Shown here in pieces: positions 443 through 51,669 of a stretch of DNA of 53,482 nt. The position numbers and the translations under genes were made by a program. Below the pieces are notes generated by a model. It did no database searches. It was not told where the DNA came from and saw only the letters and a list, made by a program, of their open reading frames with translations. The stretch covers positions 1 to 53,482 of IMG/VR virus record IMGVR_UViG_3300022918_000002. One strand, 5' to 3'. The first letter of the stretch is position 1. Each line of letters opens with the position of its first letter. The stretch comes from a virus. Taxonomy: Duplodnaviria; Caudoviricetes.

Positions 443-3400
443 TTAAAATAATCCGATAATATCGTATGATGCCCCATTCCAAATAACCCGCATACCTGAA
501 CCCTGTGTTGAGAATGTTTTGTTAACCACTCCATCAAAAGTGCCGATAGCTGTCAATATACCTGCTCCTTTATTTTTTATAACAAATTCCATGTTAGTAG
601 TTAACCCTGTAGGAAACGTAAAATTTGCCGTTCCACTCGTAAGCCCAACATAATAATCAGAAGTTGTTAACGTAGTTGATGCTGTAACGAATCTTTCGCT
701 TTTATTAAATACAGCCGTTTGGACTTGCCCCACATTTGCTGCATGCTCCGGCTGTGTACCCGCGGGTATTTCTATTTGACCAGTATCTAAAACACCTGCT
801 TTTAAAGTTGTTGTGCCCCCCGATAATGTTTTCCATGTTGTTAAATAATGTTTACCCGTACCTGTACCTACATTTTCAAATATAACACTTAAAGATTCAG
901 AACCACCTGTGCCCGTTGCTGTTGATTTATATCTAAAAGTGTGTGCTGCAAAGAATCCATTGCTATTTATACCATTTAAATTTGCCCCGTAAACCATAGG
1001 TGTCGTTGCGCTTGGAGCGGACATTCCAGGAAAAAAAGGAGCGGATAAACCTAAAAAAGAACCCGTAACGTTAATTAAAGAGTTAGCACCGTTAAACATA
1101 ATCCTGCCACCGCTACTACCTATCGTAAAGTTTGGGGCTACAGGACTACCTAACGACCCTGCTAATAAACTAAAATCATTGCCACTTCGCGTTACATTAA
1201 GCCTTGCATAATTTGCGGCATCAATAAAGTTAGAGTAATATAGAAAAGGGTTAGTAACTACAGGGTCGAATTGTAATGTACCTGTCATAGTATCTCCTGT
1301 CTTACTAACCTTTCCTGATATTGCAGGGCTCATTTCTCCTATACCTTTAACAACAGCCTGTATAAGCTGCCTGTCTACCAAATTATAGGCTGCCATAGCA
1401 GTAGCGTCGGCATTAAATATATATGTGTATCCCTGTCCTGTAGGATGTAAACCATCTGCCATTACGTTACCCGATAGATTTGGGTCATAATATTTATTAA
1501 CATCAACATACTGAATTTGAAACCCGTCTTTTGCTAATGTTGTACACAAATCAAATAAGGCACTATTTTGAGCATCAACCATTGCATCATTTAAGCCTGC
1601 AATGTTCCCGGGATAAGTTGTATAGCCTGTAGAGTTCATGTGCGCTGCTGAATTAACATAAATAGCTAACCCTCTATTGCCGTAAGGTATTTTAAGCTTT
1701 CCATTACCCAACCCACCAATAAGCCTTAATGCAGTACCGCCTGTTTTTGTTATTGTAACCGTATGTAAACCTCTTGTAAGACCTCCAAATCTATGTGTAA
1801 ATGGATAATAATTTGTATCTGATGTTCCTGTAGGTGTAGGATAGCCAACTAAAGCTGTAGAATTTGCAACAAAAGAACCCTGACTTACACCGTCAATAGT
1901 TATAGTGTAATTTGTTGTTCCTGAAACTTCATATGCAACAGTAACAAATATTACATCTCCTGTTGTTGTAAAATTCGCAGGGCTATTATTAACATTTGTC
2001 TGACTTCCTGTTGTAGTATCAAAAAATACGTTTGATGTAGTCCAATCAGCAGGTGTTGTTTTAGTCCATGCCTGGCCTTTCACAGCTTCGCTGCTATTAA
2101 ATGATGTAAGCAACCCTGTCATCATATTTATGTAAGCGGGTATTCCCGCTGTGCCGTATTGCCTAACATCATTTATTCCTAAAGCTACAATTCCTACCTC
2201 CGCATTCAAAGGGCTATATAATCCTTTATACTTTGTTGCTACAGTTGCACCGTTTGTGCCGCTATTCGTTATAGCCCACCCCCTAAAATTTCCAACCTTG
2301 TTTAAATAACCGTCATTAGCAGTAAGATTAAAATTGTTAGTAAAACTATCTCCTATAGCGTTCAGGCTTGAGACTAAACGTGTATCTAATCCAAGAGGTA
2401 TGTTTTTTACACCATCCGAAACAAAATATCCCTTATTCCACACTAAAGCATTTGCAGCATTTGGAACTGTAGAAAAAGTAGTGTTATATCCTATTTTGCC
2501 TGATGCTATTGTCGGTAATACAGCTGCTGTAGAAACATATTTGTTTGTAGTTGTTTCGGGTACGTTATCCGTATTAAATACATTAGGATAAGAGGCTAAT
2601 TTTGCTTTTTCATCAGGTAAAAATAAACCTGAATCTGTAGTATTAGCGGGTGGTATAATAGCACCTGTACCTGTACTACTGTTAACCGTCCCGCCTGTAG
2701 GGGATGCTGTGTAAGTTAGGTTTGTAGGTACTGTTATTCCACCGCCTGTAATATCACTAAGCAAAGCTAAAGTTCCTGTTTTAGCCTGTAACTTAGCTAC
2801 AAAATCGCCTGCGCCTGTGTAATCTGTTCTTTCAGGATATTTTAAAGTCGTTGTGTGATTGTAGACGCCACCATCAGCATCGTTTTTTACACTACCCTTT
2901 AATTCTGTAGATAATTCATCTTGACTCGCTAAAAACTTACCGTAATCATTAACTCCATTAAGTCCTATTTCAGCAACATCATTATCTACATAAGAGTAAA
3001 CCTCTGTTGAGTTTGAGCCGTGTATAGCGGATCTTACTTGTGGATTTCCATCTCCTGTATTTAAAATTCTTGTGCCAAAACTTTCAGCATTGGCTCCATC
3101 GGCTCCTGAAAATATTTGAGTTGGGTTAACTACGTTAATAAAAGTACCTACACCGGATGTTAATATTTGTGAGTTTGGGCTTATACTTCCTGAATATCCA
3201 TTTGCTGCATCTGAAAATTCAACAGTACCTGTTACAGAATTACCCTCTGTAGTTCCTGATAAAGGTATAAACTGACCGCTTAATGCAAGTGTAGGGTCAA
3301 TATTTCCATTTACATCAGCTTCAACACCTAATACAGTTAAAGGCGACCATTTACCGTTAACCTGAAACGTTGGGTCTGTAGATGTTAAATTAAAATTATC

Positions 3401-4354
3401 GTTGAAAGCAAAAAAAGCTTGTGTTCCTTCGTTGCCACCTTTAAATATAGCAGCTCTTTCATTATCAAAAATAATGTCGTTATTGTTACCCGTGTGATTA
3501 CTATTAGTTAAAACACTTTCTAATCCCTGTTCAGGCGTAACACCGCTATTTGTAGCTGCTGCAAAATCCCCTGATACTAATTGAGTACCTGAACCGCCAT
3601 AAACCCCGTTAGAACCTATGAATTGAACTAAGTATAAAACACCATCCTGTGTATAGCTAAAATAATATACCAATTCAGGGTTAGATAAATCACGACTTAC
3701 AGAATTTGCCGCTGTAACATAATCGCCTGTAGGTAATGACCCTAAAGATATGGTTTGCGTATTAGGGTCGTTACTTACATCTTGTACGGTTGTGGGTGTA
3801 CTACTTAAAAGCTTAAACATTGAAGCCGTTGTAGCTGTACCTGAACCACCAAAACCACTATTACCCCATGTGCCAGTACCTCCTATAAAAGCATATACTA
3901 ATCGCCTGCCATTGCCATTAATTAAGTTCTCTGTAACCTGAATGTAAACAGGCTTTGTAGTTTCAGTAACAGTAAACGAACCTGATGGAGTACGAGAATT
4001 GTTATTTATAAAGGTTTGTATATTGCCTACAGTAGTATTAAACTGCGCGGTATAGTTTATAAATAAACCTGTGTGGTTATCGCTCCCATCGCTTAACGTA
4101 TTCCAAGATGTTCCGTTGTTATACTCAACTCTGTTATTAGTAGAGTTATATTGTATACGCCCTTTTAAAGGTAGGTTAGGGTATAGCGTATTTGTTTTCC
4201 TAACAGGTAAGATTAATAAGCTGTCTGACTGTATACCCGCTTTAAACCTTGTTCCTTGCGATGCTGTACCGCTTGGGGCTAATGTGCCATTAACTTGCGA
4301 TGTTGCAGTAAACGATACAATAACCATTAAAAATAATAAAAGTCTTTTTTTCAT
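443..4354 (-). CDS. Large tail-fibre/spike-like protein with SGNH/GDSL hydrolase domain and N-terminal signal peptide
   Basis: 1303 aa, G/T/S/N-rich. SGNH blocks AIGDSFT, NSGTNGAT, LGINDV, DGLHPT; fibre-type segment VSKTGDTMTGTL; last large gene of the tail operon; begins MKKRLLLFLMVIVSFTATSQ. Confidence 0.75.
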   Translation of the reverse strand: MKKRLLLFLMVIVSFTATSQVNGTLAPSGTASQGTRFKAGIQSDSLLILPVRKTNTLYPNLPLKGRIQYNSTNNRVEYNNGTSWNTLSDGSDNHTGLFINYTAQFNTTVGNIQTFINNNSRTPSGSFTVTETTKPVYIQVTENLINGNGRRLVYAFIGGTGTWGNSGFGGSGTATTASMFKLLSSTPTTVQDVSNDPNTQTISLGSLPTGDYVTAANSVSRDLSNPELVYYFSYTQDGVLYLVQFIGSNGVYGGSGTQLVSGDFAAATNSGVTPEQGLESVLTNSNHTGNNNDIIFDNERAAIFKGGNEGTQAFFAFNDNFNLTSTDPTFQVNGKWSPLTVLGVEADVNGNIDPTLALSGQFIPLSGTTEGNSVTGTVEFSDAANGYSGSISPNSQILTSGVGTFINVVNPTQIFSGADGANAESFGTRILNTGDGNPQVRSAIHGSNSTEVYSYVDNDVAEIGLNGVNDYGKFLASQDELSTELKGSVKNDADGGVYNHTTTLKYPERTDYTGAGDFVAKLQAKTGTLALLSDITGGGITVPTNLTYTASPTGGTVNSSTGTGAIIPPANTTDSGLFLPDEKAKLASYPNVFNTDNVPETTTNKYVSTAAVLPTIASGKIGYNTTFSTVPNAANALVWNKGYFVSDGVKNIPLGLDTRLVSSLNAIGDSFTNNFNLTANDGYLNKVGNFRGWAITNSGTNGATVATKYKGLYSPLNAEVGIVALGINDVRQYGTAGIPAYINMMTGLLTSFNSSEAVKGQAWTKTTPADWTTSNVFFDTTTGSQTNVNNSPANFTTTGDVIFVTVAYEVSGTTNYTITIDGVSQGSFVANSTALVGYPTPTGTSDTNYYPFTHRFGGLTRGLHTVTITKTGGTALRLIGGLGNGKLKIPYGNRGLAIYVNSAAHMNSTGYTTYPGNIAGLNDAMVDAQNSALFDLCTTLAKDGFQIQYVDVNKYYDPNLSGNVMADGLHPTGQGYTYIFNADATAMAAYNLVDRQLIQAVVKGIGEMSPAISGKVSKTGDTMTGTLQFDPVVTNPFLYYSNFIDAANYARLNVTRSGNDFSLLAGSLGSPVAPNFTIGSSGGRIMFNGANSLINVTGSFLGLSAPFFPGMSAPSATTPMVYGANLNGINSNGFFAAHTFRYKSTATGTGGSESLSVIFENVGTGTGKHYLTTWKTLSGGTTTLKAGVLDTGQIEIPAGTQPEHAANVGQVQTAVFNKSERFVTASTTLTTSDYYVGLTSGTANFTFPTGLTTNMEFVIKNKGAGILTAIGTFDGVVNKTFSTQGSGMRVIWNGASYDIIGLF

Positions 4355-4783: not shown

Positions 4784-6799
4784 TTATTGATATTCTATAA
4801 ATGAACCATCGCCAATATCTATTAGTCCTGGTACTTCAATGTTTGTGCTATCTGTAATATCGTTTATACTTCCTGAATTTGATGAGAATACACCGCCTGT
4901 CTTAACAAGGTTTGCGCTCACAACATATAAATTTGTTTCGCCCATTGCTACATCGAATTCAGCGGGAGAATTGCTCACATAATAAACACCATCCATTTGT
5001 AGTGTCTTGTGGCTTAATGCCTGTACCAACTTTCTCATTATTTCTTTTGTAACAGGCAGGAAAGTAAATTTATCCATTTCGTAAACATCAGAATTAAGTA
5101 GAACTACAGATGTATCAGTATTGTATGTTTCAATATCTTGGTTAGATACAGCCGACACTCTATCGATAGGCAATCGTATTAAGTTAGTTATCCCTGTGCT
5201 GTAAAATATATCTGTATTATCAGGGTTTGAGTATCTTATCTCAACAGTTCCTAATTGCCTAACCTGTACATTTATTAATTCACTTATGTGAGTTAAGTTA
5301 CCAAATGTAGTATCATTATTGTTTATTCTAACCCTTATGTTTTGGTTTTGGTAATCTACAAGGTCAATTGTAAATTCGTAAACCTCATAATTAAATAGAT
5401 CGTAAACAGCACCGGCAATAACGTTCATTGGTGCGCCTATATACGGTGCATCTATTACTATAACATCAGCCTGTAAAGTATCATCATAAATAATATCGTC
5501 AATTAAGTACCATGCGCCATCTATTTGAAAGTAATTTCCAAATGATGCCCATTGAGGCAAAGTTCCATTAAGCGCATAAGGCTCAATTATAGACCCTGTG
5601 TTGTAATCATAAATGTTTCCTGACTGAAAGTATATACCTGTTTTATTGTTTCCTAAATTAACCTTAATTGCATCCCTACTATCAGTTACCCCGATATTAT
5701 TGGATTTTAAGAATACAGGTATTTGTATTTCTGTGCCATTCGATAAGATTACATAAGCAAGGTTTTCATTGTAATTTGACTTAAATTGAGTTGTAATTAT
5801 ATCAGCGGTCTGAAATTGCTGTATCTCTTTATAAGGCAATCTAACATTTACTTCACAACTTAGTGTATTTTCATCGTTACGGTAATTACCTGCATCACTG
5901 AAACTTATTCTATTAGCAAACCTAAAGCTATTGCTTTTAGATATGTAAAAGTAAGGCAGCCGTGTACTTTGTATTTCATCAACAGTAAATGCCAATGTTT
6001 TTATACATCCAAATTGGTCTTTTATATAAAGAGTATAATCGCCTGGCGAAATGCCAACAAAAGTATTCTCAAATTGATAATTTATTCCATCTAAACTAAA
6101 CTGTAATTGTAATCCAAATGGTTCTTGATAATTTACTATCAAAGTTGCTCCATTCGGGCTGTTATTAACCTGCACATTGAAATTGGCAGGGTTTAATAAG
6201 TCAGGTGTTCTATAATTTTGACCTATTATTGTATTTGGATCGCCTCCTGAAACAGATAATACTCCCGATGTGCCACGAGCTAAGCTAATATTAAATGTAT
6301 TTGAAGTTAACCCTGTTACTTGAACAGGTAAAATAATAGCAGACATATTCTGATTTGTAACAACGGCCATAAGAACCATGCCACACCTATTGCTGTTTAC
6401 AGGATTATAATTAACGCTTGTAAATGCAAAAGGAGGCTGTATAATTATTTCATTAAATTGCACATCGTAATCAGTTAAAACAGGATTTCCCTCTAACTTT
6501 AAACATTGCACTCCTGTAAATTCAATGAAATCATAGAATGTTGTTATTGTAACCGAGTTATCATTAAATGTTACGCTATACCCATCAGGATATGGCAAAT
6601 CTAACTGAAATGCGGATGCATAATTGCGCGCTGTATTTTGTCCTGTACTTATGGAATTGGCGGCGGTAAATTCGTTCCTACCTGTCCTTACTGTCCTTGC
6701 TAAGTGCAAAAACACACCATTATCTCCTATAAACACACGAATAGAGCCGTTTACAGGCACATCTTCATTGAATGTTATTATTACTTGATTTATTGCCAT
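4784..6799 (-). CDS. Minor tail/baseplate protein with Ig-like segment
   Basis: 671 aa, beta-rich; FSLDGINYQ...PGDYTLYIKDQFGC resembles SprB/Ig-like repeats; two genes downstream of the tape measure. Confidence 0.6.
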   Translation of the reverse strand: MAINQVIITFNEDVPVNGSIRVFIGDNGVFLHLARTVRTGRNEFTAANSISTGQNTARNYASAFQLDLPYPDGYSVTFNDNSVTITTFYDFIEFTGVQCLKLEGNPVLTDYDVQFNEIIIQPPFAFTSVNYNPVNSNRCGMVLMAVVTNQNMSAIILPVQVTGLTSNTFNISLARGTSGVLSVSGGDPNTIIGQNYRTPDLLNPANFNVQVNNSPNGATLIVNYQEPFGLQLQFSLDGINYQFENTFVGISPGDYTLYIKDQFGCIKTLAFTVDEIQSTRLPYFYISKSNSFRFANRISFSDAGNYRNDENTLSCEVNVRLPYKEIQQFQTADIITTQFKSNYNENLAYVILSNGTEIQIPVFLKSNNIGVTDSRDAIKVNLGNNKTGIYFQSGNIYDYNTGSIIEPYALNGTLPQWASFGNYFQIDGAWYLIDDIIYDDTLQADVIVIDAPYIGAPMNVIAGAVYDLFNYEVYEFTIDLVDYQNQNIRVRINNNDTTFGNLTHISELINVQVRQLGTVEIRYSNPDNTDIFYSTGITNLIRLPIDRVSAVSNQDIETYNTDTSVVLLNSDVYEMDKFTFLPVTKEIMRKLVQALSHKTLQMDGVYYVSNSPAEFDVAMGETNLYVVSANLVKTGGVFSSNSGSINDITDSTNIEVPGLIDIGDGSFIEYQ

Positions 6800-9084: not shown

Positions 9085-12000
9085 TTACCATCTTTTATTG
9101 TTCATTGCCCAAAGTTCGTGATTTAAGTCAAACTTATGGGTTTTGATTTGATTAATAATTTTAGCCTTTTTAAACCCGTCGGTTATAGAGTCCTGAATAT
9201 CTTGTTTAAGCTTATCGTTATTTATTGATTTATCACGCTCATTAAAGCCTTGTATACGCCTGTTATCGTTGTTAAGGTTATAGAACATGTTTTTACTCAT
9301 GTAATCCCTGTAAGCTTGTTTACTGCTGTGTACGCTATCCCCTTGTTTAAGCAAAGTCAATGTAGGAACATTTGGGGTAACGCGTATTTTACCATCTTTA
9401 CCCTCAATAATCTCTTGTACACCACCATCCCCAACTATTGCCATTTCTTCAATACCGCCCGTCCTACCATGTTTGTATTTAGGTATAGGCGTTGCTAATA
9501 CATTTGCTAATTGTGCAGCACCTACACCCGCTGCAATTGCCGCTAAAGTGGTTGCGCTAATAGCAAAGTCAAATTTAGGAACTTGAGCCAATGTAGATAT
9601 TACAGCCAATGCCGTTTGTTGTAATACTTGCGCAACGTTAAAGGCTTTGTTGAATATAGCTTGCTTACGTTGTTCCTCGCGTTTTTTACGTTCGAGTTGA
9701 GCCGTTCTTTTTGCACTTTCTTCTTCTATTAATTTCTTTTTTTCTTCATCATCCCCCGCTAACCTTGTTTGTTCATCGTAGTAGTTTTGTATATCCTGTA
9801 TCTCATCATCTATTTTACTGATACGCCTTTCAAACAAAGTATTGGCTAAATTACCCAATTCATTACTTAGGTTTTGTGATGTTTCTAAAATAAACTGTGC
9901 CGCTGCAATATTTGCATCTCTTGTACTTACAAGGTTTTTAAGTTCGGTTGCTGTTTTAGCATCTGACAATGCTATTTCTGCATTAGATAGTTTAGCAGCA
10001 TAATCTAAACGTTCCTTGTCTGTTAAATCAGTACGCGACAACAATTCTTTAAATGATGCTACCTGCGTTTCTAATGCCCTTATAGCATAACCTTTCTTAA
10101 TGTCGAATATATTACGCTCATGTGCTTCTACAGCGGCTTCACGGTCTTTGAATCCTACTTCTTCATTTGAGAAACGTTTATTTTCTCTTATAAGGTCGTC
10201 ATTAAGTAATTTAGTATTTGCTTCATCCTGCCTTTGTAAACGTTTTTCAAACAAGCTAACTAGTAAATCATCATATCTTTTTTCTCCCGCCCTATTTATA
10301 TCATCACGCTTCTTTTGTAATTCTTCAACAGCTAATAATTCCTGATTATTTAAAGCGCGTTTAATCTGACCACCTTTAGAAAGTATCTGTATTTCTTCAT
10401 CTGTTAAGTCCCTTACTTTATCATTGTACTGGGATATGTTACGAAGCTTTTTTACAGTTTCTTCTTCTGCTATTGCTAACTGCAACCTTGAAGACCTCAA
10501 TACAGCATCATAACGCTCTTCTTCTGTTTGGTTTTCATCAGCAACAATAGCATCGTTTTGTTCCCTAACAAGGTTTAAACGAAATATAATTAAATCAGAT
10601 AACGCGTTTTCTTCATCTTTAATAGTTTTATACTTATCCTTTTTTGATTTCTCTTCTTTGGCATCAAGTAATATAGATTCCGCTTGTAATTGGTTAACTT
10701 CTTCCTGTGCCGGTTTAACTAATTTCTGTAAACCATTAGCCTCGTCTTTTAGCTGTTTTAAAGAGCTTTCATTTATAGCCTTTTGCTTCTTGTCGGTTTC
10801 TTCTAATTCTTCGTTATATAGCTGCCTTTGACCTTGCTGACGTAATATCTCTTTAATCTCTGTAGATATTTCTTTTCTACGTGCAATATTAGCGTCTATT
10901 TGCTCTTTAGTAAGATTTAGGTTTACACCATCTATTTTTTGTAATTCAGATAATTCAGTTCTTAATTTGGCTAATGGGGCAGCAAAACCCTCCCTTGCTT
11001 TAATCTCATCGTTTATATCAATTATCCTGTCCTTTATGTTGTCTACTTCTTTTTGCTTGGATAAAGCCTTTGTACGGGCATCAATTGCTTTTAAAAGTTC
11101 CTGCTCACTTTTACTATATGACTTATTTAATATTTGAGCGTTACTTAAATCTTTGTAGTAATAAAAATATTGCTGTCTTAGTTTTTTAACAGCCTCATTA
11201 CGGGCATCTGTACTTAAAGCCTCATTCTTAGCTATACCTTGTAACTGCCTTAAGTTGTCTGCCTGCTTCTGAAAGTCCTTTTGAGCATCATTTGAGGTGT
11301 TTAGTAGTTTTTGTTGTGCGCGCCCTACAGCGGTTAATGCTTCGTCAAAATCCCCAAGCGTGCCTAATAGTTCAATTATTTGTCCACCAAAAAAAGTTAA
11401 TCCAACTACACCTAAAGTAAGGAATGTATTAACCGATAATAAAGAAGATCCTACACGCGCTAATATACTTGGTTGTGCTGCTAATGCTGCGTTTGCCTCT
11501 GTAGCTGCTAATGTTTCAGCGGTTAATGATGCTGTAGCTGCTGCCCTTGATATATTAGCCCTGCCTGTAGCGGCTATCTCTCCCTGTATGGCTGCAACTT
11601 GCTCTACAGTAGCACCGGCATTCAATAATGTGGCTTCTGTGTTGGCAACTGTTTCTGTAGTAGCAACCCCAGTTGTTTCTATTTCTTCTAAATGGGCTAA
11701 TACTTCTTCACGAATAGCAGCGGCTTGTTCTCTTGATGCGCCTATGCTTGCAATTACAGATTCAACTTGTGTTGCTAAGCTTTCTTCTAAGTCGCTTGAT
11801 ACTTGTACTGCGGCTTGCTGCGCTTCTGTCTGAGTGGCAACGGATGCTGTATAATCTTCTGCTACCTTTTTAATTTCGGCTAATTCACTTTTTATCGTAG
11901 TCAGGCTATCAAAAAATGCAGGTAAGTTATTAGATATTGCCAAAAAGAACGTATTAAGCGATACAGCCGCACTTGGTGCTTCCCTTAATATCTGTTGAAT

Positions 12001-14458: not shown

Positions 14459-14556
14459 TATTATATGTGTTTTATTAATTTAATCGGCACTAAAGGCCAT
14501 TAACCAAAAGTACCGTCAAACTCATTGCTGAACGGGTTGGTTCCCCCTCCGTCTGT

Positions 14557-40161: not shown

Positions 40162-40764
40162 TTAATCTAAACCAAAATATAATTCCATGCTTAAATCTTC
40201 TGTATCGGCTTGTTTAAGAGCATCAATAAGCTTTCCTTTAGACTCTTTACACAAACCATATCCGTAAGAACGATAACGGTATGACCTTTCGAAAGTAGAT
40301 ACAGGAAATATCAACCCATCATCAATAACAAGCTTTTTATTTGTGAGGTCTTCAAAGAACGTATTAACAAAAATATTGTAATAAGTGATACCCTCTTTTT
40401 CGGAACGCTTTGCATAAGCATATTTGGTAATTGAAAAATCAAACCTTGATATAATTTCAACAGGTGTTCCATAAGTATGCCTTATAAGTTCGACCCTAAT
40501 GTTTGTAGTTTTATTTTTATAGCATTTTACATTCCTGTTTTCATAAGAAAAAAAATAATTATCATCCTTTTCAAAAACATTAATCGCTTCTATTAAATCT
40601 TTTTCAGATTGAAAAAACACATCAATATCTTTAATCTTTTGATTATTAAAAATGTTTTTGAAACATCCACCGGCAATAAAACCTTTATGCCCCTCCATGT
40701 AGTAATCCAAGAATCTTACTTTGTTAAATGATTCTTTTGGTCGTTCAATAAATTTAGTTTCCAT
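40162..40764 (-). CDS. Nucleotidyltransferase-fold protein (CCA-adding/poly(A) polymerase head-like)
   Basis: FIAGGCF...KDIDVF (GG..DxD), VELI, FDFSI. Confidence 0.65.
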   Translation of the reverse strand: METKFIERPKESFNKVRFLDYYMEGHKGFIAGGCFKNIFNNQKIKDIDVFFQSEKDLIEAINVFEKDDNYFFSYENRNVKCYKNKTTNIRVELIRHTYGTPVEIISRFDFSITKYAYAKRSEKEGITYYNIFVNTFFEDLTNKKLVIDDGLIFPVSTFERSYRYRSYGYGLCKESKGKLIDALKQADTEDLSMELYFGLD

Positions 40765-40768
40765 AAAT

Positions 40769-40884
40769 AAAAAACAAAAGCCGAAAACGTCAAGGGATCC
40801 ACTCCTATCGGTTTACGGCTTGTTTAGGTTAAAGTGCAACCTATAATGTCTTAATGTAGGTGGATCTTCTACGAGACAAATATA
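40769..40884 (-). ncRNA. Kissing-loop/terminator leader, copy B
   Basis: Promoter TATATTTG 40884-40877; hairpin GTAG/CTAC with loop GATCCAC; extra hairpin TAGGTT/AACCTA; terminator AAGCCG/CGGCTT with apical GTGGATC, then a U-rich tail. Confidence 0.7.
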
Positions 40885-40901
40885 CAAATATTATTTAATT
40901 G

Positions 40902-43955: not shown

Positions 43956-44069
43956 AAAAATAAAAAGCCTACCATACTCCAAACGCATCTCAACTCGTTC
44001 TTTGTATAATAGGCTATAATGTCTTTAATGTTGCTTTAATTGAGATGCTGCAACCTTATAGCAAATATA
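43956..44069 (-). ncRNA. Kissing-loop/terminator leader, copy C
   Basis: Promoter TATATTTG 44069-44062; hairpin GTTGC/GCAAC with loop GCATCTCAA; terminator AGCCTATTATAC/GTATGGTAGGCT with apical TTGAGATGC (9-nt complement). Confidence 0.72.
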
Positions 44070-49328: not shown

Positions 49329-49636
49329 TGGATGACGAGATAAAGGTAATTTCTCTATTAGAAAAGAGTTTTACATTTAAGCGTACTACCAATACCGAAC
49401 AAAAATCCTGTTATCATTACGGGGTAGAAGTAGATGAGGAAACACGCACCGTAAATTGCGCTAAATGCGGAATTGTGATGGATCCTTTTGATTATCTAAA
49501 AACTACATGCTACAGGAACGAAAGCGCTTTCAACAAGTATATATTGTTAACAGCAGAAGTTTCTAAACTTGAAAAAAGGTATAATAATCTAAATAAAGAA
49601 ATCGAAAGATTAAAATCTATAAAGTCTAAACTATAA
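49328..49636 (+). CDS. Zinc-binding coiled-coil hypothetical protein
   Basis: CxH...CAKCG...DPFDYL, then a coiled coil. Confidence 0.65.
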   Translation: MDDEIKVISLLEKSFTFKRTTNTEQKSCYHYGVEVDEETRTVNCAKCGIVMDPFDYLKTTCYRNESAFNKYILLTAEVSKLEKRYNNLNKEIERLKSIKSKL

Positions 49637-49668
49637 AAAAAGCCTCCATTACGGGGGCTTTGCTTTTT
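49635..49668. terminator. Bidirectional intrinsic terminator between convergent operons
   Basis: A-run, AAAGCCTCC-ATTAC-GGGGGCTTT, T-rich tail. Confidence 0.8.
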
Positions 49669-50313
49669 CTAATCTAAATCCGATAATAGCTTTTTATAAT
49701 ATTCAAACTTCTTTAAAACCTCTTGCAAACCGATACTACCGCCATTTACAGCCTTTCTAACGGCTTTTACGCTTGCATCATCACTATATAGCATCTTACC
49801 CCATAACTTAGCGTGTGTAAAGAAGAATATTGCTGATTCCCAAAAGTATTTTGTTACAACCAAATCAGGTTTTGTCATTATAGCGTTATCCTGGGTGTAT
49901 TTAGAGAAAGCTTTATAATTATCCCTAAAAGTTAATTGAATACCTCCACGCCCTCTAAAACGCCAACCATCCCCGCTTTCTACACTTCCATTCCCTACAC
50001 GATTCGCATAAGTATGATTCGCTATTAATTCAGGTTTCCCGCTTATCTTTTTGGCCAATGCATTTGGTTTACCGCTTAATGCATATCTTGATGGCCATGT
50101 TTTTGCTAATCCTGCACTACTATAATTTAGGTTCTCGTAAGCAACCGTAAAGTTTCCTGTTTCATTATCTACATTAGCCAATACATGTGTAAGCTGATTA
50201 TTGCTTATTCCCCAAACCGATTTCATTTTAAGTAATGTTTTTTTATCCAATGTGCCGGTGAGTGGTAATTTGTATTTCTCCTGAAATTCTATAATGTAAT
50301 TCATAAAATACAT
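49669..50313 (-). CDS. Endolysin, glycoside hydrolase family 19-like, with short N-terminal peptidoglycan-binding segment
   Basis: ETGNF...ENLNYS, YANRVGNG...DGWRFRGRGGIQLT...NY, VNGG..G; FQEKYKL..TG.LD..T. Start 50313 or 50304; promoter box TACCTTTG at 50335-50328. Confidence 0.9.
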   Translation of the reverse strand: MYFMNYIIEFQEKYKLPLTGTLDKKTLLKMKSVWGISNNQLTHVLANVDNETGNFTVAYENLNYSSAGLAKTWPSRYALSGKPNALAKKISGKPELIANHTYANRVGNGSVESGDGWRFRGRGGIQLTFRDNYKAFSKYTQDNAIMTKPDLVVTKYFWESAIFFFTHAKLWGKMLYSDDASVKAVRKAVNGGSIGLQEVLKKFEYYKKLLSDLD

Positions 50314-50380
50314 TTTAAAGTTAATTTCAAAGGTAATAAAAAACCCCGCTAATTGCATGGTAAATTGTTTTAGTACGGGT

Positions 50381-50444
50381 TCTGACGGAAATTACTTTCC
50401 ATTAGATTTTAAGTCTAACGTGGCTACCATTACACCATAGATGC
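50381..50444 (-). pseudogene. Truncated tRNA-Leu(UAA)
   Basis: Intact 5' acceptor strand, D-arm, anticodon arm TTAGA-CTTAAAA-TCTAA and long variable arm GGAAA-GTAA-TTTCC; no TTCGA T-loop or matching 3' acceptor strand. Confidence 0.75.
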
Positions 50445-50450
50445 ATATTG

Positions 50451-50522
50451 AGCAGGATAAAGGATTCGAACCTTTATTAACAGGGTCGTAACCTGTGATT
50501 TTATCCATTAAACTAATCCTGC
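50451..50522 (-). tRNA. tRNA-Arg(ACG)
   Basis: GCAGGAT/ATCCTGC acceptor, ACAGG-TTACGAC-CCTGT, AAAGG-TTCGAAT-CCTTT; A20 present; no encoded CCA. Confidence 0.9.
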
Positions 50523-50527
50523 CTTTG

Positions 50528-50601
50528 GGTGTTATAAGAGGATCGAACTCTTATCACGGGATTCACAGTCCCGCCGCTTAACCATTTAGCGTAATAACAC
50601 C
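50528..50601 (-). tRNA. tRNA-His(GUG)
   Basis: G-1/C73, GTGTTAT/ATAACAC, CGGGA-CTGTGAA-TCCCG, AAGAG-TTCGATC-CTCTT. Confidence 0.93.
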
Positions 50602-50608
50602 ATTTTAG

Positions 50609-50680
50609 TTTCAGATAATGGATTCGAACCATTACAACGAAAGTCAAAGTTTCGTATGCTAACCGTTACATCAATCTGAA
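50609..50680 (-). tRNA. tRNA-Gln(UUG)
   Basis: U1-A72 acceptor TTCAGAT/ATCTGAA, CGAAA-CTTTGAC-TTTCG, AATGG-TTCGAAT-CCATT. Confidence 0.92.
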
Positions 50681-50685
50681 TTTAG

Positions 50686-50758
50686 TCGAAAGCGGAGGGT
50701 TCGAACCTCGACCTCCTCGTTCCAAGTGAGGGATGCACGCCATTACAACACGCTCTCG
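50686..50758 (-). tRNA. tRNA-Pro(UGG), atypical
   Basis: Anticodon loop CTTGGAA, T-loop TTCGAAC; best fold by hand has an 8-bp acceptor and 4-bp T stem, with mismatches in the D and anticodon stems. Confidence 0.8.
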
Positions 50759-50772
50759 AATTATATTTAAAT

Positions 50773-50798
50773 AAAAAAACCTCCCGTAAAGGAGGTTT
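50773..50798 (-). terminator. Attenuator terminator upstream of the tRNA cluster
   Basis: AAACCTCC-TTTACG-GGAGGTTTTTTT, ending 14 nt before tRNA-Pro. Confidence 0.88.
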
Positions 50799-50826
50799 GC
50801 TATATTATATATGTTATCTCACATAC

Positions 50827-50898
50827 TTATACGCCTATACCTCCTGATAAATTATCGGGTTGTAAAAGTCGTTGAGTATGTAACATAGTTGTTTTCAT
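50827..50898 (-). CDS. Leader peptide of the tRNA-operon attenuator (MKTTMLHTQRLLQPDNLSGGIGV)
   Basis: ATG 5 nt downstream of TATATTTG (probably leaderless); contains AGGAGGT complementary to the terminator 5' arm; stop codon 28 nt before the terminator. Confidence 0.75.
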   Translation of the reverse strand: MKTTMLHTQRLLQPDNLSGGIGV

Positions 50899-50902
50899 GC
50901 AG

Positions 50903-50910
50903 CAAATATA
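50903..50910 (-). promoter_or_regulatory. Bacteroidota -7 promoter box for the tRNA operon
   Basis: TATATTTG matches the TAnnTTTG consensus. Confidence 0.75.
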
Positions 50911-50942
50911 CAAATGTTTTTTAATAATCCTACTTTATATTT

Positions 50943-51257
50943 TTAATCGGTTTTATTAGGCAGGTTATCAAGCGTTTTAAACGCTTCATCTGTTTGACGT
51001 TTTATTCTGTGCTGTTCAGCATTTTTCATTGCCTGTATAGCCTTAATTTTAGCTTTATCGACGATAACATTAGTTTCTTTTAACTGCTGTAAAACTTTAT
51101 CTGATGGCATAGTTTCAGGCAAAACAAACATAGATGTATCCATTGCGGCTTCAGTCTTCACAGGCGTATTATTTATGCTGTCATTCACAGGCTTATCTTG
51201 CTTAACTGTTGAGCTTCCGAAAAACATGAATAACCCTAATATTAATAAATTTTTCAT
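50943..51257 (-). CDS. Signal-peptide/membrane-anchored protein (lysis region)
   Basis: MKNLLILGLFMFFGSS followed by a polar/helical region. Confidence 0.6.
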   Translation of the reverse strand: MKNLLILGLFMFFGSSTVKQDKPVNDSINNTPVKTEAAMDTSMFVLPETMPSDKVLQQLKETNVIVDKAKIKAIQAMKNAEQHRIKRQTDEAFKTLDNLPNKTD

Positions 51258-51261
51258 GTGA

Positions 51262-51669
51262 TTAGTTTTTTTGTATTTGTATTGTTTTCTGCAAAATAAT
51301 ATCTGTTTGTTTTACACCCCGGCGCAACTGGTTTAATTCTGACTGCATTTCTGCGGCACGCTGTTCATCCCTTTGGCGTTGTTCTTCTTTATACTCGCTT
51401 AATAGGCCGTTTAACCTATCAACTATTTTAACTTTATCGTCTGCGCAATCTTTCAGACTACTAATGTACTGATTACGCTCCTGTTCTCTTTTTATTTCAG
51501 AAATGTTTAACGCTAATTCCAATTCCTTAACACGGGTACGGGCGTAGTTATCCCTGGTTTCATAGAATAAAATAATAGCAAATGGCAAAGCAACCATGAA
51601 TGCACCCGCACGTTTGGCGGCAGGCAGTTTCATTATTTCCCTGAATAATTCTAAAAAGGTCTTTTGCAT
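51262..51669 (-). CDS. Single-TM coiled-coil protein (holin/antiholin or i-spanin-like)
   Basis: TM segment AGAFMVALPFAIILFY, then a long coiled coil. Confidence 0.55.
   Translation of the reverse strand: MQKTFLELFREIMKLPAAKRAGAFMVALPFAIILFYETRDNYARTRVKELELALNISEIKREQERNQYISSLKDCADDKVKIVDRLNGLLSEYKEEQRQRDEQRAAEMQSELNQLRRGVKQTDIILQKTIQIQKN

Follow-up and report, generated by a model that had tools for sequence, protein, structure and literature searches.

A candidate leader-peptide attenuator before phage tRNA operons, with sensor codons matching the encoded tRNAs

The window analyzed here is a stretch of 53,482 bp (IMG/VR virus record IMGVR_UViG_3300022918_000002) comprising a complete phage genome with direct terminal repeats, in which a short open reading frame (ORF) and an intrinsic terminator lie between a promoter and a block of transfer RNA (tRNA) genes. 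This arrangement is likely a ribosome-mediated, or leader-peptide, transcription attenuator that controls the phage tRNA operon. Such a reading, put forward in an initial annotation of this DNA, is supported by comparative evidence: the promoter–ORF–terminator–tRNA module occurs in 12 copies in seven phages, the codon run of each ORF matches the tRNAs encoded behind it, and a strand that pairs with the terminator sits just past each codon run and co-varies with the terminator. The phages would thus probably make these tRNAs only when decoding of the matching codons slows.

Of the 80 ORFs retained in a crude map of the genes, 74 lie on the minus strand of the window, and transcription appears to proceed almost wholly from that strand. 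Read along it, the module opens with a −7 box and the ATG of a 23-codon ORF; an intrinsic terminator separates this ORF from four tRNA genes, and a truncated tRNA-Leu closes the module ahead of the endolysin gene. All elements named in the initial annotation were located on the minus strand where it had placed them, and every coordinate and pairing could be reproduced; only its description of the start codon as lying 5 nt behind the box differs in wording, as the ATG, at the same position, begins 4 bases after the box. The elements of the module are as follows.

50903-50910, minus strand: Bacteroidota sigma-A −7 box TATATTTG, the predicted leader promoter, recognized by sequence
50827-50898, minus strand: leader ORF of 23 codons, MKTTMLHTQRLLQPDNLSGGIGV and stop, with the A of the ATG at the predicted +1
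50857-50883, minus strand: putative sensor codons 6-14 (TTA CAT ACT CAA CGA CTT TTA CAA CCC), recognized by codon content
50815-50887, minus strand: long imperfect hairpin that spans the sensor codons together with the ORF end, a predicted anti-antiterminator in the window phage (−23.5 kcal/mol, z score −3.4)
50839-50845, minus strand: predicted 5′ strand of the antiterminator, AGGAGGT in codons 18-20, forming the best duplex with the terminator 5′ arm (−11.9 kcal/mol)
50770-50798, minus strand: intrinsic terminator AAACCTCCT-ttac-GGGAGGTTT plus T-run (9 pairs, −11.2 kcal/mol; stem 50798-50777)
50798-50790, minus strand: terminator 5′ arm, which by pairing would also serve as the 3′ strand of the antiterminator
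50685-50758, minus strand: tRNA-Pro(UGG)
50608-50680, minus strand: tRNA-Gln(UUG)
50527-50600, minus strand: tRNA-His(GUG)
50450-50522, minus strand: tRNA-Arg(ACG)
50381-50444, minus strand: truncated tRNA-Leu(UAA), the putative right-hand junction of an inserted cassette (Rfam 19.6 bits at 50444-50387)

The distance from the terminator to the first tRNA gene is 9–18 nt (18 bases when counted from the stem end at 50777). The truncated tRNA-Leu scores 19.6 bits against an Rfam cut-off of 29; it retains the acceptor 5′ half, D arm, anticodon arm with the loop CUUAAAA (Leu UAA), and the variable-arm hairpin, and lacks the T arm. Upstream of the module lies a gene for a 104-residue protein, the stop codon of which ends at 50943 on the minus strand.

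The central feature of the leader is the composition of its ORF. Codons 6-14 specify L H T Q R L L Q P, and, as initially claimed, eight of these nine belong to the set Leu, His, Gln, Arg, and Pro. The best 10-codon stretch contains eight codons of this set (p ~9e-4 relative to random peptides with the amino-acid frequencies of the window genome). An ORF rich in the codons to be sensed, and tied by them to the regulated genes, is what a ribosome-mediated attenuator calls for.

The initial annotation had proposed asking whether such upstream ORFs track the anticodon set in other phages, and the comparison came out positive across 12 modules, seven phages, and three leader classes. The carriers are the window phage, the IMG/VR contig L196, the Cellulophaga phages phi4:1, phi19:1, phi10:1, and phi38:1, and the Tenacibaculum phage Gundel_1; the five isolates among them span four named families or genera. 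Each of the three leader classes stands before a different tRNA block: Pro/Gln/His/Arg/Leu in class A (with Glu added in phi4:1 and phi38:1, and Pro/Gln/Met(cat)/Asn/Leu in Gundel_1), an Ala/Lys/Ile/Gly/Met/Asp/Thr/Val/Arg type in class B, and Tyr/Trp/Phe/Ser/Cys with or without Asn in class C. The codon run of each class matches its own block. In the following list, the sensor segment, the ORF (each ending in a stop codon), and the downstream tRNAs are given for each leader, together with, for seven of them, the number of ORF codons readable by the encoded anticodons under standard wobble.

Class A, window: sensor mkttmLHtQRLLQP..; tRNAs as listed above; 7 of 22 codons read
Class A, L196: sensor ..LHtQRiQLPeL..; ORF MKTVILHTQRIQLPELYSGGTGV; Pro, Gln, His, Arg, and a Leu(UAG)-like tRNA; 6 of 22 codons read
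Class A, phi4:1: sensor QRLHLQELEQP; ORF MKIQRLHLQELEQPIISGGTGV; Pro, Glu, Gln, His, Leu, Leu, Arg; 11 of 21 codons read
Class A, phi19:1: sensor HiQRLPQP; ORF MNNNTIHIQRLPQPKRFGEFAVYGSDGLIG; Pro, Gln, His, Leu, Arg; 7 of 29 codons read
Class A, phi38:1: sensor LLHQEPLEQLRLP; ORF MNVTLLHQEPLEQLRLPSRVPYYGIDELS; Pro, Glu, Gln, His, Leu, Arg
Class A, Gundel_1: sensor NNLhiQQNNLP; ORF MKTNNLHIQQNNLPVFLEGFLYM; an inserted HNH endonuclease gene, then Pro, Gln, a CAU-anticodon tRNA, Asn, Leu
Class B, phi4:1: sensor TKTGITVIDKTKGARA; ORF (GTG)QLTKTGITVIDKTKGARAYLGDTVIG; Ala, Lys, Ile, Gly, Met, Asp, Thr, Val, Arg(UCU), Met; 18 of 26 codons read
Class B, phi38:1: sensor IMnIaTDIRTKGVK; ORF MKTIMNIATDIRTKGVKLLGRSRVL; Lys, Ile, Gly, Met, Asp, Thr, Val, Arg, Ile
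Class C, phi10:1: sensor WSYSCFSYSF; ORF MLKKWSYSCFSYSFKNGEVIL; Tyr, Trp, Phe, Ser(UGA), Cys; 9 of 20 codons read
Class C, Gundel_1: sensor YSYSCFSSWF; ORF MKTKLYSYSCFSSWFKNRAG; Tyr, Trp, Phe, Ser, a GCA-loop tRNA, Ser
Class C, phi4:1: sensor NYctYNNSNWSFSY; ORF MKTNYCTYNNSNWSFSYDTGSVCTLGSDGLIG; Tyr, Ser, Ser, Asn, Trp, Phe, and an odd tRNA with GCA in the anticodon loop; 13 of 31 codons read
Class C, phi38:1: sensor YNNFSWYSNCSFSSYN; ORF MKTNMTYNNFSWYSNCSFSSYNVERLYLS; Tyr, Ser, Ser, Asn, Trp, Phe, Cys

The geometry of the modules is uniform. In all 12, the ORF lies near the promoter and upstream of the tRNAs and is 20–32 codons long, and an intrinsic terminator with a stem of 7–12 pairs and a U-run separates it from the tRNA genes; the stop codon precedes the U-tract by 43–54 nt in 11 of the 12. 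ORFs homologous to the window leader are those of L196, phi19:1, and the class A leaders of phi4:1, phi38:1, and Gundel_1. The phi19:1 module, found through a weak tRNA-level match, consists of a −7-like box, 4 bases, the ATG, the ORF, the terminator, and the tRNAs, and has the core H-x-Q-R-L-x-Q-P in common with the window. At the corresponding site of its relative phi10:1, the promoter is the same but a different ORF and a class C block follow; three of the phi10:1 tRNAs were called only at a relaxed ARAGORN threshold, with Rfam scores of 34 and 25 bits for two of these three and 86% identity between the Trp one and a phage tRNA-Trp already annotated. The leader of L196 recurs in the metagenome contig L204. 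In phi4:1 (146 kb), three leaders are embedded in one long tRNA array, and the blocks of phi4:1 and phi38:1 divide the genetic code roughly by first letter, with CNN, GAR, and UUR codons in block A, ANN and GNN in block B, and UNN, AAY, and AGY in block C.

The correspondence between ORF and tRNA set was assessed for all leaders. The best 10-codon stretch of each contains 7–10 codons of its own set (p from 1e-5 to 3e-2, again relative to random peptides with the amino-acid frequencies of the window genome), and the longest own-set runs comprise 3–16 codons. When the 12 tRNA sets were re-dealt at random to the 12 leaders, the summed length of the longest runs, 111 for the true assignment, was reached in none of 100000 permutations. 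The match also follows differences between leaders of the same class, as is evident when a leader is compared against sister sets that differ by Glu, Asn, or Cys. Glu codons occur in the sensor run only where a tRNA-Glu follows (the class A leaders of phi4:1 and phi38:1), and these two leaders have runs of 11 and 13 with their own set versus 5–6 with sets that lack Glu. Asn codons occur in the runs of the phi4:1 and phi38:1 class C leaders and the Gundel_1 class A leader, where a tRNA-Asn follows; the two class C leaders have runs of 10 and 16 compared to 5–9 with other class C sets. In the Gundel_1 class A block, in which Asn is present and Arg and His are absent, Arg codons are missing together with tRNA-Arg, and the run is 6 with its own set and 2 with the other class A sets. 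Finally, codons 11-13 read L-L-Q in the window and I-Q-L in L196, a permutation within the set, followed by an identical tail, TCAGGAGGTA. Permutation within the set combined with a fixed tail is the behavior expected of a codon sensor rather than of a functional peptide.

Beyond the match itself, the leaders bear on the annotation of neighboring genes. Two tRNAs labeled as pseudogenes or of undetermined type, at 9243-9317 of the phi4:1 stretch L183 and at 3218-3291 of the Gundel_1 stretch L206, have in common an unusual anticodon arm in which GCA takes the anticodon position; because Cys codons are present in the upstream leaders, they can be read as Cys tRNAs, which suggests that the GCA-loop tRNAs serve as tRNA-Cys. 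Several tRNAs, called by ARAGORN at the relaxed threshold, are missing from published annotations: Trp, Ser, and Cys in phi10:1 (L013/L073), and Met, Ile(tat), Tyr, Ser(tga), Trp, Cys, Pro, and Glu in phi38:1 (L208). Two annotated hypothetical proteins, phi4:1 gp075 (L133/L183) and phi38:1 gp066, correspond to leader ORFs, and the annotated phi38:1 gp067, gp068, and gp071 overlap tRNAs. In Gundel_1, the HNH endonuclease gene between the class A terminator and the tRNAs (L206 3628-4134) has a −7 box of its own.

A second line of evidence concerns the RNA structures that could couple the ORF to the terminator. In the window, AGGAGGT (50845-50839) is complementary to ACCTCCT (50796-50790), as had been claimed, and forms the best duplex between leader and terminator 5′ arm; its energy of −11.9 kcal/mol was reached by 4 of 1000 dinucleotide shuffles, and by 8 of 2000 in a separate run. 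Duplex energies were compared with shuffles because the leaders are too dissimilar in sequence for a trustworthy alignment. In 12 of 12 leaders, the best duplex with the terminator 5′ arm is located just past the sensor run, at codons 17-22 in the ten leaders with short runs and at codons 20-26 in the class B leader of phi4:1 and the class C leader of phi38:1, and in ten it beats 1000 dinucleotide shuffles at p <= 0.03. The pairing strands change with the terminator yet stay complementary, as in AGGAGGU/ACCUCCU, ACAGGAUC/GAUCCUGU, GGAAGGAUUU/AAAUCCUUCC, and AGCAGGA/UCCUGCU.

When the nascent RNA was folded as far as the terminator loop, with the transcript masked through 12 nt past the A-site codon to mimic a ribosome, the terminator 5′ arm was predicted to be 56–97% paired for A-site positions within the sensor codons. 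One to three codons later, predicted pairing falls to 18% or less in ten leaders and to about 33–40% in the class A and class C leaders of phi38:1. These models predict an antiterminator that depends on ribosome position, a defining property of leader-peptide attenuators. In each of the seven leaders folded, including that of the window, a long imperfect hairpin spans the ORF and the terminator comes after it; in the window, this hairpin is the minimum-free-energy fold (z = −3.4 without and −4.6 with the terminator). The initial annotation had interpreted this hairpin as an anti-antiterminator. The interpretation agrees with the predicted fold of the window leader, in which the terminator 5′ arm is only 2% paired when no ribosome is present, but it does not generalize: the arm is predicted to be free in two leaders only, that of the window and the class A leader of phi4:1 (17%), whereas it is 47–96% paired in the other ten, for which the termination by default of the trp model is not predicted.

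A third feature is the position of the start codon. In Flavobacterium, the −7 box TAnnTTTG spans −12 to −5, as described in excerpts of two papers (PMC6847099, PMC9723704). A box so placed ends 4 (or 5) bases before the start site, which would put the predicted +1 at the A of the leader ATG and make the mRNA leaderless, that is, one with no 5′ untranslated region (UTR). Box and start codon thus have the spacing of a predicted leaderless Bacteroidota promoter, and the ATG begins exactly 4 bases past the −7 box in 10 of the 12 modules. Nine of 16 copies of TATATTTG on the minus strand fall within the intergenic 11.3% of the genome, and TATATTTG is the predicted usual −7 box of the window phage. 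An ATG occupies the +1 position at 3 of 16 intergenic TAHHTTTG boxes on the minus strand, namely at the leader, at a six-codon mini-ORF near 14500, and at a gene for a 135-residue protein (ATG 51669), the latter two with the box exactly 4 bases before the ATG as well. Leaderless starts thus seem to be used elsewhere in this phage. In phi38:1, three near-identical promoter copies (L208 about 2340-2368, 3815-3844, and 5058-5087), one for each tRNA-block leader, consist of a T-run, ATATCAAAAAAA, GTTG, and TATATTT[G/A].

Together, these observations suggest how the device would operate. Transcription would start at the A of the ATG, and with no 5′ UTR a ribosome would load at once, with codons 6-14 sensing how fast Leu, His, Gln, Arg, and Pro codons are decoded. 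A ribosome held within the sensor run would leave AGGAGGU (codons 18-20) exposed to pair with the ACCUCCU of the terminator 5′ arm as it emerges; the terminator hairpin would then fail to form in time, and the polymerase would enter the tRNA-Pro, -Gln, -His, and -Arg genes and probably the endolysin gene. Fast decoding would place the ribosome on codons 15-23, where it covers AGGAGGU; the terminator would then fold, and a transcript of about 125 nt, the leader RNA, would be released. Alternatively, in the window phage, the hairpin over the sensor codons may refold, with the terminator likewise forming. Since the products would be the very tRNAs that read the sensor codons, the circuit would constitute a negative-feedback tRNA homeostat. 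Both the kinetic competition between the structures and the direction of regulation are inferred.

Several points weigh against the attenuator model or limit its reach. Leaders within a class are homologous, and the 12 modules are therefore not 12 independent cases; independent support amounts to about three classes, each an unrelated sensor sequence that matches its own block, plus the within-class differences that the match follows. The match is also imperfect. The window run includes Thr8; phi19:1 has Asn at positions 2-4 without a tRNA-Asn; the Gundel_1 class A leader contains one His codon without a tRNA-His; and the longest run in L196 is only three codons (p = 0.1). With respect to readability, the initial annotation had correctly placed CCC outside standard wobble and had considered TTA to be served by the encoded anticodons, but TTA is read only by the truncated tRNA-Leu, and CTT, like CCC, is unread. 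The antiterminator duplex is not significant in the class B leader of phi4:1 (78 of 1000 shuffles) and the class A leader of phi38:1 (103 of 1000). When six leaders (all of those folded except L196) were modeled at equilibrium with the whole terminator, the terminator won in most states; its probability dips only in the window (14%), phi19:1 (45%), and the class C leader of phi4:1 (6%) and stays at or above 85% in the class A and B leaders of phi4:1 and in phi10:1. Antitermination would consequently have to be kinetic, as in classical attenuators. Some −7 boxes deviate from TAHHTTTG (TAGTTTAG, TAGTATTG, and TATATTTA), and neither class B leader is leaderless, one of them having a GTG start. 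The 530 bases ahead of a 3-tRNA array in Bacteroides phage DAC19 contain neither leader nor terminator, which indicates that the device is not universal in Bacteroidota phages. Finally, the site of transcription initiation, translation of the leader, and both termination and read-through are inferred here.

The site of the module can be traced to phages that lack the tRNAs. Relatives of the window phage were retrieved from IMG/VR through its flanking proteins, and four records were checked for tRNAs: three, including both complete genomes, gave no tRNA match and hence no array, and the fourth, an incomplete record, gave a single match far from the module site. What the relatives carry at this site is a −7 box and a leaderless mini-ORF that spans just one or two codons (ATG TGA, for instance), then a small hairpin and, immediately ahead of the endolysin gene, a strong terminator; the closest relatives without tRNAs are also without the leader ORF. 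The sites in these relatives and the corresponding downstream features of the window are as follows.

L005, 2895-2975: promoter-terminator site without tRNAs
L006, 3270-3385: promoter-terminator site without tRNAs
L007, 3268-3383: promoter-terminator site without tRNAs
50328-50350, minus strand of the window: remnant 3′ half of the old pre-endolysin terminator, as in the tRNA-less relatives
50335-50328, minus strand of the window: second −7 box, TACCTTTG, which follows the terminator remnant
49669-50304, minus strand of the window: GH19-type endolysin gene, the next gene downstream

In the window, the 3′ half of the old terminator survives behind the truncated tRNA-Leu. Because the relatives possess the site but neither tRNAs nor ORF, and because half of the old terminator persists, the module looks like a cassette that recombined recently into a pre-existing promoter-terminator site before the endolysin gene. 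The alignments suggest that leader ORF, terminator, and tRNAs entered as one unit, with the left junction at the shared promoter and ATG and the right junction inside tRNA-Leu. In L005, L006, and L007, a second TAnnTTT(G/A) box overlaps the terminator T-run. The longest endolysin ORF of the window starts at 50358; the start conserved in the relatives (MNYIIEF, MNYIIEFQEKYK) corresponds to the ATG at 50304, 23 bases after the −7 box TACCTTTG.

The tRNA-less sites raise the question of whether the promoter-proximal terminator could instead be controlled by a phage or host antitermination factor, with the ORF incidental and the tRNAs and endolysin expressed as late genes. Phage lambda provides the precedent: at pR′-tR′ (6S RNA), a constitutive promoter is followed by a nearby terminator before the lysis genes, and read-through depends on Q antitermination. 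The layout of L005, L006, and L007, which keep the −7 box, the small hairpin, and the strong terminator before the endolysin gene with mini-ORFs of only one or two codons, is that of pR′-tR′, and in Nekkels_1 a −7 box is likewise followed by terminator hairpins, here before the portal gene. Such promoter-terminator sites indicate that promoter and terminator predate the arrival of any tRNA cassette. In the window, unlike in lambda, a codon-sensor ORF and tRNAs lie between promoter and endolysin gene, and control by an antitermination factor would leave unexplained both the matched codon runs of 12 of 12 ORFs, with their three sets and within-class differences (0 of 100000 permutations), and the strand complementary to the terminator arm right after each run. 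No antiterminator protein was found, although no search aimed at one was made. We regard control by such a factor as quite improbable. Still less probable is that the promoter-terminator unit is a gene in its own right, encoding a small RNA of about 125 nt or a protein of 23 residues that acts elsewhere, with the tRNAs transcribed by unregulated leak-through. The unit has its own promoter, a strong terminator, and a good fold (z −4.6), and, according to an excerpt of PMC6614838, the terminated attenuator RNA rnTrpL acts in trans in other bacteria. However, the peptide sequence is not conserved, conservation being confined to the set membership of the codons and the RNA-pairing tail; three unrelated central sequences occupy the same frame of promoter, tail, and terminator; and a role in trans would add to attenuation rather than replace it.

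The remaining alternatives accept the attenuator and differ in its purpose. Phage tRNAs have been reported to offset tRNA-cleaving defenses such as PrrC, PARIS, and retron Eco7, and the circuit might, as the initial annotation had proposed, serve specifically as a counter-defense that switches on replacement tRNAs when anticodon nucleases or other tRNA-depleting defenses cut the matching host tRNAs. The sensor covers exactly the codons served by the encoded tRNAs, such that loss of those host tRNAs would induce the operon. The same behavior would be expected of supply-and-demand feedback, of a response to general host tRNA turnover, or of a response to amino-acid shortage, from which a counter-defense is indistinguishable here; moreover, the blocks of phi4:1 and phi38:1 jointly cover nearly all amino acids, a breadth that fits general control of supply better than a response to a single nuclease. 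A dedicated counter-defense is a rather unlikely purpose; the circuit reads equally well as plain supply-and-demand feedback. Phage codon demand, host tRNA decay, amino-acid shortage, and tRNA-cleaving defenses are all candidate natural triggers that the data do not separate. A broader view, tentative and on balance doubtful, is that of a modular tRNA homeostat: up to three operons divided by codon class (mostly CNN, ANN/GNN, and UNN), each with its own leaderless multi-codon sensor peptide, would detect limiting host tRNAs in real time, including those limited by host shut-off and anticodon nucleases, and answer with the matching tRNAs, and recombination at the shared promoter would carry the cassettes from one phage family to another, unrelated one.

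The predicted device resembles the attenuators of amino-acid operons (trp, his, leu, thr, and pheA) in having a promoter-near short ORF with a regulatory codon run, then an intrinsic terminator, and an upstream strand that can pair with the terminator 5′ arm, with ribosome position deciding the structure. Sensing of several amino acids has precedents in the multivalent leaders of ilvGMEDA (Ile/Leu/Val) and thr (Thr/Ile). In contrast to these systems, the phage modules would regulate tRNA genes rather than biosynthetic enzymes, their sensors cover 5–9 amino acids, the mRNA is predicted to be leaderless in 10 of 12 modules, the element is an exchangeable phage-borne cassette, and no 1:2-type hairpin is predicted to impose termination without translation in 10 of 12 leaders. 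As in T-box riboswitches, the leader would sense the state of particular tRNAs, and an alternative antiterminator would control terminator read-through; T-boxes, however, bind uncharged tRNA directly and need no translation, whereas the phage leaders would sense through ribosome speed on the ORF. The Bacteroid-trp leader is an attenuator of the same phylum. Leader-peptide attenuators have also been reported for amino-acid operons of Flavobacterium psychrophilum, as stated in an excerpt of PMC9723704. Both would operate by the same mechanism in the same phylum and without Shine-Dalgarno sequences, but they belong to host biosynthetic operons and respond to a single amino acid, and they are neither phage-borne nor placed over tRNA genes.

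In a search of positions 49500-51500 of the window against Rfam 15 at E <= 10, no leader family reached its gathering threshold and no T-box match was obtained, the only matches being tRNAs and sub-threshold, terminator-shaped ones. Among the latter is Phe_leader (RF01859) at 50770-50899. The pheST attenuator that this family represents is comparable in standing before genes of the translation apparatus, but the match scores 25.8 bits against a gathering score of 55, the ORF has no Phe codon run, and equally weak matches fall on an unrelated terminator at 49633-49703; it was rejected as reflecting terminator shape only.

Searches for further copies yielded few beyond those described. blastn of the region against phages returned tRNA-level similarity only, and an exact 32-mer of the tRNA-Arg had no match in IMG/VR. 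The sensor-core pattern occurred in two stretches, phi19:1 itself and L011, the latter being a chance match inside a coding region without a tRNA. A promoter-plus-ATG pattern occurred in at least 118 stretches, and 5 of 121 sites examined had tRNAs downstream, all in three already-known phages; the conserved upstream block of Assiduviridae matched only the three isolates. Two tail patterns occurred in 63 and 8 stretches, with a tRNA within 250 nt at four sites, in phi19:1, phi4:1 (twice), and L196, the last of which was new. A metagenome scan returned two stretches, L204 and a false match. In representative bacterial genomes, the window-type pattern occurred in 55 stretches, none with a tRNA within 700 nt, a result that, given the narrow pattern, speaks neither for nor against host-encoded versions. 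The crAss-like phage cr7_1 has a single tRNA only. The PMC open-access and bioRxiv literature yielded no account of an attenuator or a leader ORF ahead of phage tRNA genes, subscription journals and supplements lying outside that scope, and in excerpts of the paper on Gundel_1 and Calle the tRNAs are only counted (PMC8776804).

Elsewhere in the window, another TATATTTG box (40884-40877, minus strand) is followed by a structured leader of ~110 nt (region 40764-40900), which ends in a terminator-like hairpin and T-run directly before the ATG of a 200-codon ORF at 40764. The first part of this leader and the leader behind the box at 44069-44062 (region 44020-44069) have the motif CATTAA(A)GACATTATAG in common, and the two may represent another family of cis-regulatory leaders in the window phage.

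If the attenuator model is correct, it would be, to our knowledge and as far as could be found, the first case of leader-peptide attenuation over tRNA genes and the broadest multi-amino-acid sensor known, with up to nine amino acids read in one leader. More generally, the content of a leader has value for annotation, as it predicts the identity of odd tRNAs such as the GCA-loop tRNAs read as Cys. Bacteroidota are a phylum without Shine-Dalgarno initiation, and phi38:1, phi4:1, phi19:1, phi10:1, and Gundel_1 are in culture with their hosts, which makes the system testable now on leaderless mRNAs. Why phages carry tRNAs, and when these come into use, is debated, with codon bias, host tRNA decay, and escape from tRNA-cleaving defenses among the proposed reasons. 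An attenuator of this kind would be a sensor of decoding speed for the codons of the phage's own tRNAs, by which tRNA supply would be regulated by demand, and identifying what induces read-through would show the purpose that phage tRNAs serve.

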